In this document: positions 13,355 through 29,871 of the stretch, one piece after another | Numbering within the stretch: the first letter of the stretch is position 1 | Layout: the number at the start of each line of letters is the position of its first letter | From: Firmicutes bacterium HGW-Firmicutes-7 | Lineage (GTDB): Bacteria; Bacillota; Clostridia; Lachnospirales; Vallitaleaceae | DNA: 40,000 nt | NCBI GenBank assembly: GCA_002841375.1 | Contig: PGZO01000029.1 | Coordinates: 1 to 40,000, forward strand | Direction of reading: 5' to 3' | Made by a program: the position numbers and the translations under genes | The notes under the pieces: model-generated | Databases searched by the model: none | What the model was told of the DNA's origin: nothing | What the model saw: only the letters and a program-made list of their open reading frames with translations

Positions 13355-14224
13355 TTAATCCTCCTCATTATTTTCGTCTAATACCATTTCCATAGCCTTT
13401 TTTTCTATCTTATCAAAGTCATAATTACGCTGTTCAAAGTTGATAAACTTGTTGGTACTAGACTTGTCCCTCTTTTCATTTTTTTTAGATTTTGAATTAT
13501 CAACGTCACCTCTAGTCTTATAATTATTATTTTTCCATGCCAAACAGATAGTTTCTATATATTTCCATGATCTTTTATTGTAGTCATTTGCTTGTTCAAT
13601 GGCATAACAGACTAAATCTTCACCAATATCATCAACTGCAACCTTTATCTTTTTAATTATTGATGGTGGTATGGTTCCTATGTTCTGCTCATAATACTGA
13701 AATGGATTATGTTTAGTAGTAGATAATATATTTAGTTCTTCTTCTAGTTCTTCTTCTAGTTCTTCTTCTAGTTCTTCTTCTAGTTCTTCTTCTGCTACGT
13801 TACTCTCCGTTACTGTAACGTTACAAGTAACGTTACTATTTATTAATTTTTGTCTATGCTTTGCAACCCTTATTCTTGTTTGTTCCCTAACCTTTTCTAA
13901 TGTTTCTATGTTCTGATGCTTTTCCCAATTTGACACATAGTACGTATTATTAATAATTTCAATCATTTCAAATCTTTCAAATACTTCAAGTGCCATCTTT
14001 ATAGTCATTAATGGTCTGTTAAATATACTACTTAACATTTCATTGTTGTATTGTATCCTATCATTTAGCATTAGTAGGCCACTTCTATTTGTTCTTCCAG
14101 CTAAACAAAGTATCTTTAACCAAATTACTAGTAGGGTATCAGATTCAGGCATATTTTCAATTAATCTTATTTTTTCATCGTCAAATATATTAGTTACTAT
14201 TTTTATCCATTTAACATCTGCCAC
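13355..14224 (-). CDS. phage replisome organiser / DnaD-domain protein
   Basis: The N-terminus VKWIKIVTNIFDDEKIRLIENMPESDTLLVIWLKILCLAG matches the replisome-organiser N-domain. The C-terminal part is DnaD-like (FQYYEQNIG...RSWKYIETICLAWKNN). Confidence 0.8.
   Translation of the reverse strand: MADVKWIKIVTNIFDDEKIRLIENMPESDTLLVIWLKILCLAGRTNRSGLLMLNDRIQYNNEMLSSIFNRPLMTIKMALEVFERFEMIEIINNTYYVSNWEKHQNIETLEKVREQTRIRVAKHRQKLINSNVTCNVTVTESNVAEEELEEELEEELEEELEEELNILSTTKHNPFQYYEQNIGTIPPSIIKKIKVAVDDIGEDLVCYAIEQANDYNKRSWKYIETICLAWKNNNYKTRGDVDNSKSKKNEKRDKSSTNKFINFEQRNYDFDKIEKKAMEMVLDENNEED
13733..13792. repeat. perfect 12-bp tandem repeat x5 (tagttcttcttc), encoding (EEEL)5
   Basis: Counted directly. 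It lies in the linker of the DnaD-like protein. Confidence 0.95.
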
Positions 14225-15284: not shown

Positions 15285-15312
15285 ATTATATCACCCACCC
15301 ATTATTTGTCAA
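15285..15312 (-). promoter_or_regulatory. leftward (lytic-direction) sigma-A promoter
   Basis: The minus strand reads TTGACA-16 nt-TATAAT, with TG one base upstream of the -10 (TGATATAAT). It lies 39 nt upstream of the cro-like ATG. Confidence 0.6.
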
Positions 15313-15770: not shown

Positions 15771-16271
15771 ATGAGTATTTATCAGCGTGAAAGTGATAAA
15801 CGGTGGGTAGTCTGTGTTAAACTACCTTCTGAGGATGGTAAGCGAAAAAGAAAATACGTTTATGCTAATTCTGAAAAAATAGTTAAAAGACATAGCAACT
15901 AATCCTGCAAATATGTATCCCTTCCTAAAAGCGTTACTTATAAGCCTGAAATTTATAACGAGGAAAAATTTAATAGTCTTTTAGATACAGTTAGGGGTAC
16001 ATTTGACGAAATACCGATATTGCTTGCTGGTTGTGTTGGGTTAAGACGTGGAGAAATATTTGGATTAAGATGGAAAGATATTGACTTTAAGGCTAGAACG
16101 ATATCTGTAGTTGAAACTGTCGTTGCGTGGCTTAAAGTTAAAAAACCAAAAACTGAAGCCAGCGAAAGATTAGGCCATGCTGATACGATGCACGAAGATG
16201 CTGCAAGTAAGTTAGAAGCAGCTTTTACAAAGAAGTCTGACAGCCATTTTGACAGCCAAAAAACGAATTAA
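15771..16271 (+). pseudogene. tyrosine integrase relic (in-frame stop plus internal deletions)
   Basis: A 43-codon arm-type N-terminus (MSIYQRESDKRWVVCVKLPSEDGKRKRKYVYAN...) runs into TAA at 15900. The same frame continues with catalytic-domain fragments (LLAGCVGLRRGEIFGLRWKDIDF, then directly ERLGHAD). About 166 codons remain, against the ~350-400 expected for an intact integrase. Confidence 0.8.
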
Positions 16272-25690: not shown

Positions 25691-26263
25691 TTAGTTCATA
25701 AAGGTGACTTGCCCATTCTTGAAGCGATCAACAATTACTAATGATTCTAATTGCACATTTTGCTCCCTTAACAATTTTCCACCCTCTTGAAAGCCTTTTT
25801 CAATAACAATACCGATGCCTTCAACTGTTGCACCAGCTTGTTGAACAATATCGGTTAATGCTAAGGCAGCTTTACCATTTGCTAGAAAATCATCCAGAAT
25901 CAAAACCCGATCCCCTTCGTGTATGTATCGTTTAGATACTTGAATGTCATAGGTTTTTTGTTTAGTAAAAGAGTATACTTGACTTTTGTATGTGTCTACA
26001 TCAAGATTTCTAGATTCAGTTTTTTTAGCAAACACAACTGGAACTTTGAAATAAAGTGCAGCAATTGATGCTATTGCAATGCCTGAAGCTTCAATCGTAA
26101 GGATCCTTGTAATGCGTTTACCCTCAAATCTTTTATAAAACTCTTGTCCAATTTCTTCAAATAGTTGAATATCAAGTTGATGGTTTAGGAAAGAATCTAC
26201 TTTAAGAACCTCTTCGGAGGCAACTCTTCCTTCTTCTAGTATTCTCTTTTTCAAAGACTCCAT
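25691..26263 (-). CDS. xpt: xanthine phosphoribosyltransferase
   Basis: 190 aa. LKVDSFLNHQLD...VLILDDFLANG is the PRPP-binding motif. A purine riboswitch lies upstream. Confidence 0.9.
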   Translation of the reverse strand: MESLKKRILEEGRVASEEVLKVDSFLNHQLDIQLFEEIGQEFYKRFEGKRITRILTIEASGIAIASIAALYFKVPVVFAKKTESRNLDVDTYKSQVYSFTKQKTYDIQVSKRYIHEGDRVLILDDFLANGKAALALTDIVQQAGATVEGIGIVIEKGFQEGGKLLREQNVQLESLVIVDRFKNGQVTFMN

Positions 26264-26342
26264 TAATATTTCTCCCTTATGCGATACTTTTCCGTCAATA
26301 AAATTCTTGTTCCTTGAATAAAAAGGTAGAACTTTCCTACTG

Positions 26343-26464
26343 GGGTTGTAGTGTCAAAAGTAAGTTCGTTCTAATTCTCACACAACATATAGCGATGATT
26401 AAAGCATCCATGCACTATATGTTGTGCAAGAAAGAACAACTATATACTTTTGACACTATAACCC
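26343..26464. repeat. MITE-like near-palindromic element, copy A (degenerate)
   Basis: Its reverse complement aligns to copy B (28981..29102) with ~11 substitutions and 2 single-base indels over 122 nt by hand alignment. The terminal inverted repeats are gggttgtagtgtcaaaagta and tacttttgacactataaccc. Confidence 0.85.
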
Positions 26465-26471
26465 TATTGGA

Positions 26472-26500
26472 TAAAAAAAACTCTGCATGTGCAGAGTCCT
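26472..26500 (-). terminator. rho-independent terminator in xpt leader
   Basis: The minus strand reads GGACTCTGCACATGCAGAGT followed by T8. It lies ~85 nt downstream of the aptamer. Confidence 0.6.
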
Positions 26501-26582
26501 TACAAAATATGCATTCATAATTAGAAATCCTCTTTTAAAAATACAAAAAGGAAAACTAAATAAGCAATACATATCTTGCATG

Positions 26583-26654
26583 AACTCGTAGCCTTTAACT
26601 ATTTGAGGTAGTTTGTAGAAACATTTGAACCATATTTTCAAATTTATACGAGTT
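26583..26654 (-). promoter_or_regulatory. purine riboswitch aptamer (guanine-type C at discriminator position)
   Basis: The minus strand reads AACUCGUA-UAAAU-UUGAA-AAUAUGG-UUCAA-AUGUUUCUAC-AAACUA-CCUCAAA-UAGUU-AAAGGC-UACGAGUU. It aligns without gaps to the B. subtilis xpt aptamer (as I recall it) through UAUAA, AUAUGG and GUUUCUAC. P1 is 8 bp. Confidence 0.7.
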
Positions 26655-26784
26655 ATTGTATGTGTTTTTATTGGTAGCTATGCATTTTATGCAAAGTACT
26701 ACTTCTGCATTTTAATACAAATTAACTATAAAATCAAGCTTTTTCTTAACAGAATGCTGTAGCATTTAATAATAATGCTTTAGG

Positions 26785-27891
26785 TTAGAAACTCAAGCTG
26801 TTATTTCCCAAGTAAGCTAAAACCTGCTCAATATTTCCTTTAAATTTAATTTTATGTTTACTTTTTTGTATTTGATAATTGTACATCGGGTCATAATAAT
26901 CTCTTAGGAGTGTTTCTATCCAGTTTTTGTGTGCTTCGTAACATCCTGAATAATAAATTTGCTCTTGATAGGCTAGTTCAAACAAGTCTAATACATGCTT
27001 ATAGCGATCGCCTCCAAGTCTATTTTTAACTCTGCCTAGGCTACTACGGATATAGTTAGCCCATTCATTTAGCCCCTCCTTATCTTGATAGGTGCCAATA
27101 TAGCGCTCTTGGGACTGTATAACATATTCTTTCATGGTATTTAAAACACGCTCTTCAAAAGGAACTTCAAGAATAATTAAATCACCCGAACTGAAAAACT
27201 CAACCAATGGTTTAGGCAGATTACATCTTCCGACATTTCTCCCTTCGTCCTCTAAAATCATGGTTCTATAAGCTTTATTTTTATGTTTTATTAACGCTGC
27301 AGCAAGATTGTTTTCAAAGTTTATTTGTGTAGGTTGTGGCGTCACATGTTTACCAAATGATGACCCTCTATGGTTAGCTAATTCCTCAAGATCTATCGCA
27401 TTCTCAAGGTTCTTAAGCAAAGTAGTTTTACCTGCTCCTGTACATCCTCCTATTAAAACTGGTTTGCTGATTTGTTGTGCTGGTTCAAGTGCGCCCATAA
27501 GATAATTTCTATAAGCCTTGTACCCGCCTTCAAGACGACTTATTTCTTTACCTGTTACTTCTGCAATCCACTGTTGGCTAATCTGAGAACGTAGCCCACC
27601 TCTAAAGCAATAGATCATACTACTTGGATATTCCTCTAAATGTTTTTTCCAAGCGTCCACACGTTCTTGTTTTATTTCACCTGATACCAACTGATGACCT
27701 AATTTGACAGCCTCTTCATTACCTTTTTCTTTATAACATATACCTACTTTATGTCTTTCTTCATCATTCATTAATGGTAAGTTAACCGCATTTATAAACG
27801 CACCTTTTTCAAACTCTATTGGTGCGCGTACATCAATAAGTGGAATTTCTTCAATAACAATCTTTTTATAATCCTTACATGTACTATCCAT
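26785..27891 (-). CDS. selU: tRNA 2-selenouridine synthase
   Basis: N-terminal rhodanese domain (LIDVRAPIEFEKGAFINAVNLPLMNDEER...YCFRGGLRSQ) plus P-loop GGCTGAGKT. It is adjacent to selD. Confidence 0.85.
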   Translation of the reverse strand: MDSTCKDYKKIVIEEIPLIDVRAPIEFEKGAFINAVNLPLMNDEERHKVGICYKEKGNEEAVKLGHQLVSGEIKQERVDAWKKHLEEYPSSMIYCFRGGLRSQISQQWIAEVTGKEISRLEGGYKAYRNYLMGALEPAQQISKPVLIGGCTGAGKTTLLKNLENAIDLEELANHRGSSFGKHVTPQPTQINFENNLAAALIKHKNKAYRTMILEDEGRNVGRCNLPKPLVEFFSSGDLIILEVPFEERVLNTMKEYVIQSQERYIGTYQDKEGLNEWANYIRSSLGRVKNRLGGDRYKHVLDLFELAYQEQIYYSGCYEAHKNWIETLLRDYYDPMYNYQIQKSKHKIKFKGNIEQVLAYLGNNSLSF

Positions 27892-27892
27892 A

Positions 27893-28927
27893 TTATATAA
27901 TCCTAATTAATTTTTCAAATCGTTCACATGTCTGCCCAATAGATTGTAGTTGCAAGCCAGCTGCAGACGTTATTTCTAACAGCTCTGAAACCCCTTCTTT
28001 TTTAACAATTACAAGTAATCCACCTGAAGTTTGGGCATCACATAAAATGTACGTTTGTTCTTCAGTCATTTCCTCAATCGTATGCCCATAGCTTTTAAAG
28101 TTATTTTTTGTACCTCCAGATATACAATCCATTTCAAGATATTTTTTTGTATTGGGTAGCAATGGAACTTTATCATACTGAATTATAGCTGAAATACCAC
28201 TTCCTTCGCATACTTCACCCAAGTGGCCAAGCAGCCCAAATCCAGTAACGTCTGTCAATGCAACTACGCTTTCTAATGCGGATAGATCGTTGCCAATTTT
28301 ATTTAAAGTACTCATAGCATCAATCGCCACATCAATATGTCCAGGCTCTATTTTTTTCCTCTTTTGTGCCGTTGTTATAATTCCAATGCCAAGTGGCTTG
28401 GTCAGGAATATTTCGCAGTCTGGAACTGCTTTATTATTTTGTTTCAACCTTTTATTATCAACAATTCCCGTTACAGCTAGTCCAAAAATTGGCTCTGGTG
28501 AATCAATGGAATGCCCTCCTGCAAGAGGAATTCCTGCTTCACTACAAGCTGTTCGTCCACCTTCAATAACCTCTCTGGCGATTTCTGGTGCTAATACGTT
28601 AACTGGCCATCCAAGTATTGATATTGCCATCAATGGTTTTCCACCCATTGCATAAATATCACTAATCGCATTTGTCGCAGCAATCTTTCCAAAAGTAAAT
28701 GGATCATCTACGATTGGCATAAAAAAATCCGTTGTACTTAAAACGGAAGTACCATTTCCCAAATCAAATGCAGCTGCATCATCTTTACTGCTATTACCTA
28801 CTAGAAGCTTTGGGTAGATTTTTGATGTCTCTTGTGTTGTTTTTAGTATTGTCTCCAAAACTGCTGGGGAGATTTTGCATCCACAACCAGCACCATGACT
28901 ATATTCTGTTAGTTTAATTTTTTCCAT
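27893..28927 (-). CDS. selD: selenide, water dikinase (Cys-type)
   Basis: [21 protein letters not shown], with codons TGT and TGC and no TGA. The track ORF extends to 29050 only because it reads into repeat B. AAGGAA precedes the ATG at 28927. Confidence 0.9.
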
Positions 28928-28967
28928 TTTGACATTCCTTTGTATAATAAAATAATTGGTTAATAAT

Positions 28968-28995
28968 ATTATAACATATATGGTTGTAGTGTCAA
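28968..28995 (-). promoter_or_regulatory. hybrid promoter for selD: -35 inside repeat B terminus, -10 in flank
   Basis: The minus strand reads TTGACA (28995..28990)-16 nt-TATAAT (28973..28968), with a TGT extension. It lies 40 nt upstream of the selD ATG. Confidence 0.55.
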
Positions 28996-29102
28996 AAGTA
29001 TATAGTTGTTCTTTCTTACACAACATATGGTGCATGGATGCTTTAACCATGCACCATATGTTGTGTAAGAATTAGAACATCTTACTTTTGACACTACAAC
29101 CA
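28981..29102. repeat. MITE-like near-palindromic element, copy B (well preserved)
   Basis: The perfect 20-bp terminal inverted repeats are tggttgtagtgtcaaaagta and tacttttgacactacaacca. A perfect 22-bp inner stem pairs ttacacaacatatggtgcatgg with ccatgcaccatatgttgtgtaa, and an asymmetric internal loop lies between the outer and inner stems. Confidence 0.9.
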
Positions 29103-29187
29103 TAAATTCAATCATATTTTTTTCCATAAATACCTTCTTTCTTCATTTCTTCTCAATAAATAAGTACGGTAGTGTTACATTCTGTTT

Positions 29188-29871
29188 TCACATTTGATAA
29201 AAATCTCCTGCAAGCGCTTTCAGTTCTTCCTTTTTCATTATTATTATTGTTTTACCCTTTTTATCAATGATTTGATCTCTTACTAGTTTGATCAACATTC
29301 GATTAAGATGCCTATAACTAGTTCCTAGTAACTCTGCTAAATCTGAATAATTCGATTCGATCTCACAAATATTATTTTCATTTTGTATATTTTCAATAAT
29401 ATAACTTGAAAGCCTTGCCTCTAAGGGATATAAGTTCATTGATGATTTATACGTAATTGAATCTAATTTTTGGGCAAGATGATTTCCTAAAAACCTTAAA
29501 AAAACAACATTATTAATTCCGTATAGTCTTACAAGTTTCATAGGTATTCCAATGCAGACGCTATTTTCTAAAGCTTCTACGAAAACGCGATATTGATTAT
29601 AATGAAACACCTCAACATCTCCAAGTACATTAAGGGGTTGATAGAATCTTAAAAGTGATTTTTTACCATTTTCTAATAATGTATATATTTTAGCCTTACC
29701 CTCTACAAAATAATAAAAATATGCAACTTCTTGTTCTGTTTGACAAATATAATCGCCTTTCTCAAAGGTGTGAAGCTCACAATGCATAATAAGCTCCTTA
29801 CCAATGACATTCTCTAATTCATACTTGTGCATATATTCCAAAATTTTATTTTTATCCTCAATAATCTTCAT
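29188..29871 (-). CDS. Crp/Fnr-family transcriptional regulator
   Basis: 227 aa with an N-terminal cNMP-binding-like beta-roll and a C-terminal HTH (DLAELLGTSYRHLNRMLIKL). Confidence 0.8.
   Translation of the reverse strand: MKIIEDKNKILEYMHKYELENVIGKELIMHCELHTFEKGDYICQTEQEVAYFYYFVEGKAKIYTLLENGKKSLLRFYQPLNVLGDVEVFHYNQYRVFVEALENSVCIGIPMKLVRLYGINNVVFLRFLGNHLAQKLDSITYKSSMNLYPLEARLSSYIIENIQNENNICEIESNYSDLAELLGTSYRHLNRMLIKLVRDQIIDKKGKTIIIMKKEELKALAGDFYQM

Follow-up and report, generated by a model that had tools for sequence, protein, structure and literature searches.

What is a strongly palindromic element of about 122 nt doing in two inverted copies on either side of the selenium genes selD and selU, and does the pair form a unit that can move or flip the genes between its members? 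We addressed this question in one 40-kb stretch of DNA (hereafter the window) of the uncultured groundwater bacterium 'Firmicutes bacterium HGW-Firmicutes-7'. The original prediction for this locus proposed a non-autonomous transposable element, with the inverted pair as a possible means of inverting or mobilising selD-selU, or alternatively an unrecognised family of structured RNAs. We found that the non-autonomous transposable element is the best-supported reading, based on terminal inverted repeats, the lack of coding capacity, flanking repeats, a homologue in Vallitalea and the pattern of contig breaks in the host sample. We think it likely that the two copies, A and B, belong to an undescribed low-copy family resembling transposable elements of the miniature inverted-repeat kind (MITEs), that they came from two independent insertions, and that one insertion brought a promoter gain at selD. 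The kind of element is known, as bacterial MITE-like palindromic elements; the family itself is new.

Two inverted copies had been predicted, and we found both in place. Copy A lies between a purine riboswitch and the gene xpt, both described below. The parts of the two copies are as follows.

26343..26464, minus strand (end 1 to end 2): copy A, imperfect hairpin (RNA minimum free energy -62.5 kcal/mol, z -12.0)
26343..26362: A, terminal inverted repeat nearest xpt (end 2)
26445..26464: A, terminal inverted repeat nearest the riboswitch (end 1), one mismatch, GGTTATAG
28981..29102, plus strand (end 1 to end 2): copy B, near-perfect hairpin (RNA minimum free energy -79.3 kcal/mol, z -17.4 to -17.5)
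28981..29000: B, left terminal inverted repeat, TGGTTGTAGTGTCAAAAGTA; an outward-facing TTGACA is in its reverse complement
29083..29102: B, right terminal inverted repeat
29013..29071: B, inner stem, perfect over 25 bp, with a 9-nt loop (arms 29013-29037 and 29047-29071)

Copy A is the reverse complement of copy B with 91.7% identity over 121 nt, in agreement with its description as a diverged inverted copy. The terminal inverted repeats of B are perfect over 20 bp, as had been reported, and match at 19/20 positions in A and 17/19 in the Vallitalea copy. The perfect inner stem of B was present as well, but with 25 bp and a 9-nt loop rather than the 22 bp claimed. The element has a polarity, from end 1 (...AAAAGTATATAGTTG) to end 2 (...AAAAGTAAG...TCTAAT), owing to asymmetric internal loops that separate its ends from the inner stem, and by this polarity A and B are truly in opposite orientation, as had been argued from the loop. 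Single strands of both copies fold far more strongly than shuffled sequence, and folding with DNA parameters agrees. With at most one mismatch allowed, the window contains the terminal 19-mer GGTTGTAGTGTCAAAAGTA four times (0.02 expected), and no copies or fragments of the element were found in the window beyond A and B.

The element is non-coding, as proposed. It is 120-122 nt long in the three copies, counting that in Vallitalea, below the limit of about 300-500 bp used for prokaryotic MITEs, with stop codons in most frames. The sole open frame is a spurious 68-aa open reading frame (ORF) for which HMMER detected no homologue in 1.84 billion representative proteins. When we looked for additional copies by way of such spurious ORFs, neither a word-indexed protein search nor HMMER against the same number of representatives gave anything relevant.

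We found a candidate target-site duplication at each of the three copies.

26337..26343: A, left, CTACTGG
26464..26470: A, right, CTATTGG (6/7 match)
28976..28981: B, left, ATATAT
29102..29107: B, right, ATAAAT (5/6 match)
Vallitalea copy: ATAGTT and ATAGCT (5/6 match)

These imperfect direct repeats of 6-7 bp directly abut the GGTT...AACC borders of the element. The probability of such flank matches by chance is 1.2-1.6% and 0.2-0.4% per copy, and approximately 1e-5 jointly. Matches at three of three copies with this joint probability point to transposase-type insertion with a duplication of approximately 6 bp. Because the outer flanks of the A..B interval do not match and each copy has a duplication of its own, the two copies appear to be separate insertions. 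Both insertions are apparently old, since each duplication carries one mismatch and the copies are 92% alike.

The third copy came from a scan for the terminal 19-mer in 185,579 reference genomes, a collection that does not include the host metagenome-assembled genome (MAG). A Vallitalea sp. MAG contains a homologous element of 120 nt with both termini (L008:1355-1474). End 1 is identical over 27 nt and end 2 has the same motif, AAGTTC..TCTAAT. The inner hairpin has diverged in sequence and is still completely paired. Conserved ends with a diverged interior are the pattern expected if selection acts on the ends only, for recognition by a transposase. The Vallitalea copy is located in a 201-nt spacer between tandem paralogous genes for hypothetical proteins (L075 10001-11470) that are 65% identical, 209 and 212 aa long, and without a Pfam domain. 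This locus is unrelated to selenium or purines, and the copy is antisense to the neighbouring genes. Its folding is stronger on one strand (-56 kcal/mol) than on the other (-40 kcal/mol), a difference due to strand-biased pairs.

Other terminus matches were rejected. Three in Methanococcoides represent one orthologous coding sequence, and those in Thermoanaerobacterium and Clostridiales fold no better than their shuffles. BLASTN against plasmid and phage collections found nothing at E <= 0.01 and, at E <= 10, chance matches inside genes only. The 19-mer matches in a viral collection were all to collagen-like coding repeats, and two stricter patterns of the element had no match there. A literature search for the terminal motif found nothing relevant. 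A relaxed paired-core pattern matched metagenome sequences (at least 50 loci, L018-L067), which we rejected as arrays of an unrelated 22-nt unit, TAGTGTCAAAAGAGACCTA...; this pattern was too short, and that scan is therefore uninformative about true family members. The arrays themselves are found on at least 50 contigs from the JGI metagenomes Ga0315899, Ga0315905, Ga0315908, Ga0115006 and Ga0209230, where the unit of about 22 nt (TAGTGTCAAAAGAGACCTAnnn) is densely repeated in direct and inverted orientation and shares only a 12-mer with the element.

Assemblies of the host sample suggest, indirectly, that the family may have further members there. In run SRR3546456, three independent Logan contigs match the window with 100% identity, and each of them ends inside the elements. 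At both ends of copy A the contigs stop exactly 30 nt (k-1; Logan k = 31) inside GGTT...AACC. Copies A and B have a single 31-mer in common, which accounts for one of the four break points. The other three indicate that the terminal 30-mers of the element also occur in another context in the sample. A Logan contig of a different run reads straight through the single Vallitalea copy, indicating that such a hairpin does not itself break contigs. These observations imply, indirectly, that the host sample contains more copies of the element than A and B. An additional 12 kb of unbroken host Logan contig contained no further copies. A 12-nt tandem repeat, AGAAGAACTAGA, marks the far end of the Logan contig starting in copy A. 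This repeat is present in approximately five copies at 13733-13793, inside an ORF on the minus strand (13355-14224).

Several observations weigh against a MITE-like family. The terminus scan gave 13 single matches, about the number expected by chance, and only the Vallitalea match is a full element. The visible copy number is low: two in at least 52 kb of host sequence and, in the Vallitalea MAG, a single copy with no other in the surrounding 20 kb. The cognate transposase that would be expected for a non-autonomous element, or a full-length insertion sequence (IS) with matching ends, was absent from the window, the fetched loci, and the plasmid, phage and viral collections. We did not see an empty-site allele in SRR3546456, where contigs cross the junctions between flank and element without a branch. 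Nor did orthologous sites show presence/absence polymorphism: the host's closest relatives are distant and not syntenic, and for the Vallitalea locus the sole homologue of the flanking gene outside that MAG is 49% identical, with a spacer that cannot be aligned. The signal for extra copies could in principle come instead from single-nucleotide polymorphisms between strains at the element borders. The candidate target-site duplications, found at all three copies, are all imperfect, with one mismatch in each, and their length (6 or 7) depends on the border drawn. With NGGTT...AACCN' borders the flanks become TA/TA (B), TA/CA (A) and GT/TA (Vallitalea), and an alternative border one base outward, with duplication of TA, is possible, although the 6-7-bp repeats at GGTT...AACC borders give the better fit. 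Finally, 11 of the 54 stem pairs were kept through changes on both sides, unlike what is expected of a purely decaying transposon. The arms of a palindrome can correct each other by template switching, and such correction could be behind the doubly changed pairs.

The genes around the two copies are all on the minus strand, in the order YeiL-like regulator, copy B, selD, selU, riboswitch, terminator, copy A, xpt, and a BMP-family ABC transporter. Genes near the copies also include a DMT transporter.

29188..29871, minus strand: gene for a CRP/FNR-family (YeiL-like) regulator; copy B lies 86 nt past its stop codon
28968..28995, minus strand: predicted hybrid sigma-70 promoter for selD (12/12 match plus TG)
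27893..28927, minus strand: selD (selenide, water dikinase; Cys form), NF002098, 528.7 bits
26785..27891, minus strand: selU, or mnmH (tRNA 2-selenouridine synthase), NF008751, 497 bits
26569..26671, minus strand: guanine-type purine riboswitch aptamer of xpt, RF00167, 68.3 bits (gathering score 37)
about 26470..26499, minus strand: terminator hairpin of the riboswitch, GGACTCTGCACATGCAGAGT followed by T8
25691..26263, minus strand: xpt (xanthine phosphoribosyltransferase), NF006671, 281.5 bits; copy A lies in its leader

The copies had been said to flank exactly the two selenium genes. They do not: the 2.5-kb A..B interval also holds the riboswitch, promoter region and terminator that serve xpt, which is outside the interval. 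The guanine riboswitch (RF00167), which controls xpt and the BMP-family ABC transporter, had been missed. Copy A begins 5 nt past the T-run of the terminator and 80 nt ahead of the xpt start codon, and is a simple insertion into the xpt leader.

We found a predicted promoter at the junction of copy B and its flank that would direct transcription of selD. The -35 hexamer, TTGACA (28995-28990), is inside the terminal repeat of B. After a 16-nt spacer, an extended -10, TGtTATAAT (28976-28968), is located in the flank, and the promoter lies 41 nt upstream of the selD ATG. Perfect 12/12 sigma-70 promoters number two in the 40 kb, compared to 0.11 expected, or 0.0075 expected with the TG extension. 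An element inserted at random would find a perfect -10 at the correct spacing in 0.4% of cases. We reconstructed the empty B site by removing the element and one copy of the duplication. The reconstructed site has an A-run at the -35 position and no recognisable -35, indicating that the native selD promoter was probably an extended -10 only. Judging from these sequences, the insertion of B probably raised transcription of selD-selU by supplying a consensus -35. The second perfect 12/12 promoter in the window, TTGACA-N17-TATAAT, is on the minus strand with its -35 starting at 15312.

We considered a similar promoter reading from copy A toward xpt and rejected it: a TTGACA faces xpt, with no -10-like hexamer at 16-18 nt by inspection, and the promoter scan listed none there. 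With no promoter in copy A, control of xpt by the riboswitch is not bypassed. The transcribed hairpin of copy A in the xpt leader may be neutral or, by analogy to Correia and ERIC elements (PMC10969869), a substrate for RNase III. The functional account in the original prediction had included neither the predicted hybrid promoter at B nor the position of A in a riboswitch-controlled leader.

Copy B could also affect how selD is read by annotation programs. The longest selD ORF (27893-29050, minus strand; 385 aa) begins within copy B. The true start codon is the ATG at 28927, from which the protein has 344 aa and matches SelD models over their full length. Automatic annotation could give SelD a false N-terminal extension of 41 residues derived from copy B.

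Based on these results we suggest the following history. Each copy would have inserted independently into an intergenic site and duplicated approximately 6 (possibly 7) bp of the target. Movement would have been driven in trans by a transposase presumed to recognise the conserved ends (GGTTRTAGTGTCAAAAGTA). Copy B would have landed in the promoter region of selD with its outward TTGACA 16 nt from a native extended -10, and the resulting consensus sigma-70 promoter would drive selD-selU. Copy A would have landed in the xpt leader past the guanine riboswitch terminator, where it would be transcribed as a 122-nt leader hairpin whenever the riboswitch reads through. The placement of the two copies around selD-selU would be a by-product of independent insertions in neighbouring intergenic regions.

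Our results might also indicate a structured RNA, either a cis-regulatory hairpin or a small RNA, that is retained because of its fold. The stability of the hairpins is extreme, and copy A is located in the transcribed xpt leader in the end 1 to end 2 orientation. In the same orientation, the non-Watson-Crick pairs are 7 G.U and 1 A.C, a bias that could come from strand-specific selection or from C-to-T mutation bias. The comparison of the window copies to the Vallitalea copy for covariation gave the 11 doubly changed pairs of 54 described above; given only three sequences, and the ability of palindrome arms to co-evolve through template switching, we treat this as a lead rather than as evidence that the RNA has a function. 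However, A and B have opposite orientations relative to a single direction of transcription, the Vallitalea copy is antisense to its neighbours, and the three loci are functionally unrelated. In addition, the symmetry is that of terminal inverted repeats, accompanied by flanking direct repeats. In a scan of Rfam the element was below every gathering threshold, with matches only to generic long-hairpin miRNA models at E about 0.01 (29.7 bits compared to a threshold of 100 for one such model), and only the neighbouring purine riboswitch passed. We consider a structured RNA improbable, and the proposal of an unrecognised RNA family a weak one given the opposite orientations, the DNA terminal-repeat symmetry and the Rfam result.

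A related notion is that the element is a low-copy hairpin module selected for its fold as single-stranded nucleic acid and is not a decaying relic of a transposon. The basis for this notion is the 27-nt identical ends in two distant genomes, the 11 doubly changed pairs and the 7:1 ratio of G.U to A.C. We regard it as unlikely. If true, anaerobic Firmicutes would have a new kind of mobile hairpin with a regulatory role, or else a site recognised by a recombinase specific for single strands.

It is also possible, though we think quite improbable, that the element is a palindromic site for protein binding or for recombination of single-stranded DNA (an operator, or a site like attC or REP) and does not derive from a DDE transposon. 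Strong conservation of the ends across genera, an interior that varies and stays paired, conserved asymmetric bulges and a low copy number are all consistent with such a site. Against this, the copies do not form an array of one orientation, an integrase, RAYT or regulator is not found near them with any consistency, and the length of 120 nt is far greater than that of REP units. By inspection, GTTGTAG does not fit the attC core GTTRRRY. An integron attC was rejected more generally: the ends, GGTTGTAG and CTACAACC, do not fit RYYYAAC and GTTRRRY, the copies are inverted, and there is no adjacent integrase. REP and invertible-switch readings were rejected from the end sequence, the orientation and the lack of a recombinase.

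We think it highly unlikely that the inverted pair forms a composite transposon-like unit, or an invertible one, that mobilises or flips selD-selU. Such a unit is suggested by the two inverted copies 2.5 kb apart around selD-selU and by the neighbourhood of selD-selU, which is different in every relative examined; 122 bp at 92% identity could also support rare homologous inversion. However, apart from a SelU with 100% identity from the HGW-Firmicutes-7 MAG (unclassified Bacillota), the closest SelU relatives are 72-74% identical and not syntenic with the window, and altered neighbourhoods are expected at this distance anyway. Three relatives have a tight selD-selU pair with other neighbours and no element. 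The outer flanks of the A..B interval lack a common duplication (at most two matches at any length), and each copy has its own. The interval carries the riboswitch, promoter and terminator of xpt, and moving or flipping it would uncouple xpt from them. No recombinase gene is adjacent to the copies. The claim that the inverted pair could mobilise the selenium genes is not supported, given the unmatched outer flanks, the xpt riboswitch inside the interval and the relatives without the element. Elsewhere in the window, an 83-aa gene with a weak match to tyrosine recombinases (Phage_integrase) is located at about 16020-16271 (L001 10103-10354), beside an HTH_31/XRE-type gene. It is approximately 10 kb from copy A and possibly a remnant of an integrated element.

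We likewise give very little weight to a local inverted duplication without mobility or function: only two copies are directly visible, close together and 92% identical, but this does not fit with a homologue at an unrelated Vallitalea locus, sharp GGTT...AACC borders with a separate flanking repeat at each copy, and Logan break points that need other contexts for the terminal 30-mers.

The MITE-like family that we favor has counterparts among known palindromic elements. In Correia elements (CREE/NEMIS) of Neisseria, an element-borne -35 is completed by native sequence into a promoter, termed the 'Black promoter' (PMC2649163), and the element hairpins are cut by RNase III (PMC10969869). Like Correia elements, the element here is a non-coding intergenic palindrome (about 100-155 bp in that class) with terminal inverted repeats, has an outward -35 in its end that is predicted to be completed natively into a sigma-70 promoter, and would be transcribed as a long hairpin, the form in which CREE are known to be cleaved by RNase III. 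The resemblance is functional only, as host phylum and sequence differ. CREE duplicate TA (sometimes CA), whereas the element here is flanked by 6-7-bp repeats; CREE provide a -35 together with part of a -10, whereas the extended -10 here is entirely native; and CREE, with 26-bp terminal inverted repeats and a core specific to Neisseria, are present in hundreds of copies with a site for IHF in long forms, whereas the element here is low-copy. The CREE end begins TATAGTGG and would have TATAGTG in common with GGTTATAGTG of the element, probably by coincidence.

The RUP, BOX and SPRITE elements of Streptococcus pneumoniae are imperfect palindromes (RUP approximately 107 bp) in transcribed intergenic regions, and their hairpins affect mRNA stability. 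The same has been described for ERIC (IRU) of enterobacteria, an imperfect palindrome of approximately 127 bp that is transcribed from intergenic regions with a hairpin affecting mRNA stability (PMC10969869). The element here is likewise an imperfect palindrome of similar size. Rfam and similarity searches revealed no sequence relationship to those groups. Those families are high-copy within one genus, whereas the element here is low-copy and has been seen in two Clostridia-type genomes, uncultured or marine, that are distant from each other.

Hybrid promoters are also created by insertion sequences such as IS257/IS26, IS1 and IS2, which have an outward -35 in the terminal repeat. The arrangement proposed for B is the same, with a TTGACA from the element suitably spaced from a native -10. 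Those IS elements are autonomous, 0.8-1.3 kb long and encode a transposase, whereas the element here is 122 bp and non-coding. Promoter donation by the end of an element is an effect of a known kind, with no new mechanism involved. In MITE-flanked composite units, such as integron mobilisation units, two small inverted-repeat elements surround cargo genes. The outer ends of such units share a target duplication and the cargo is accessory. In contrast, the outer flanks here lack such a match and a separate duplication surrounds each copy, and part of the 'cargo' is the leader that regulates a gene beyond the unit.

These findings carry a warning for annotation: the repeat yields spurious ORFs, breaks short-k assemblies and could be taken for the boundary of a selenium-gene cassette. 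They add a MITE-like family to the poorly sampled deep-subsurface and marine Clostridia-type bacteria. They also provide testable instances of two textbook effects within 3 kb of each other. In one, the end of an element would donate a consensus -35 to an operon for selenophosphate and tRNA selenouridine synthesis. In the other, an insertion would be tolerated in a riboswitch-controlled leader without bypass of the riboswitch.

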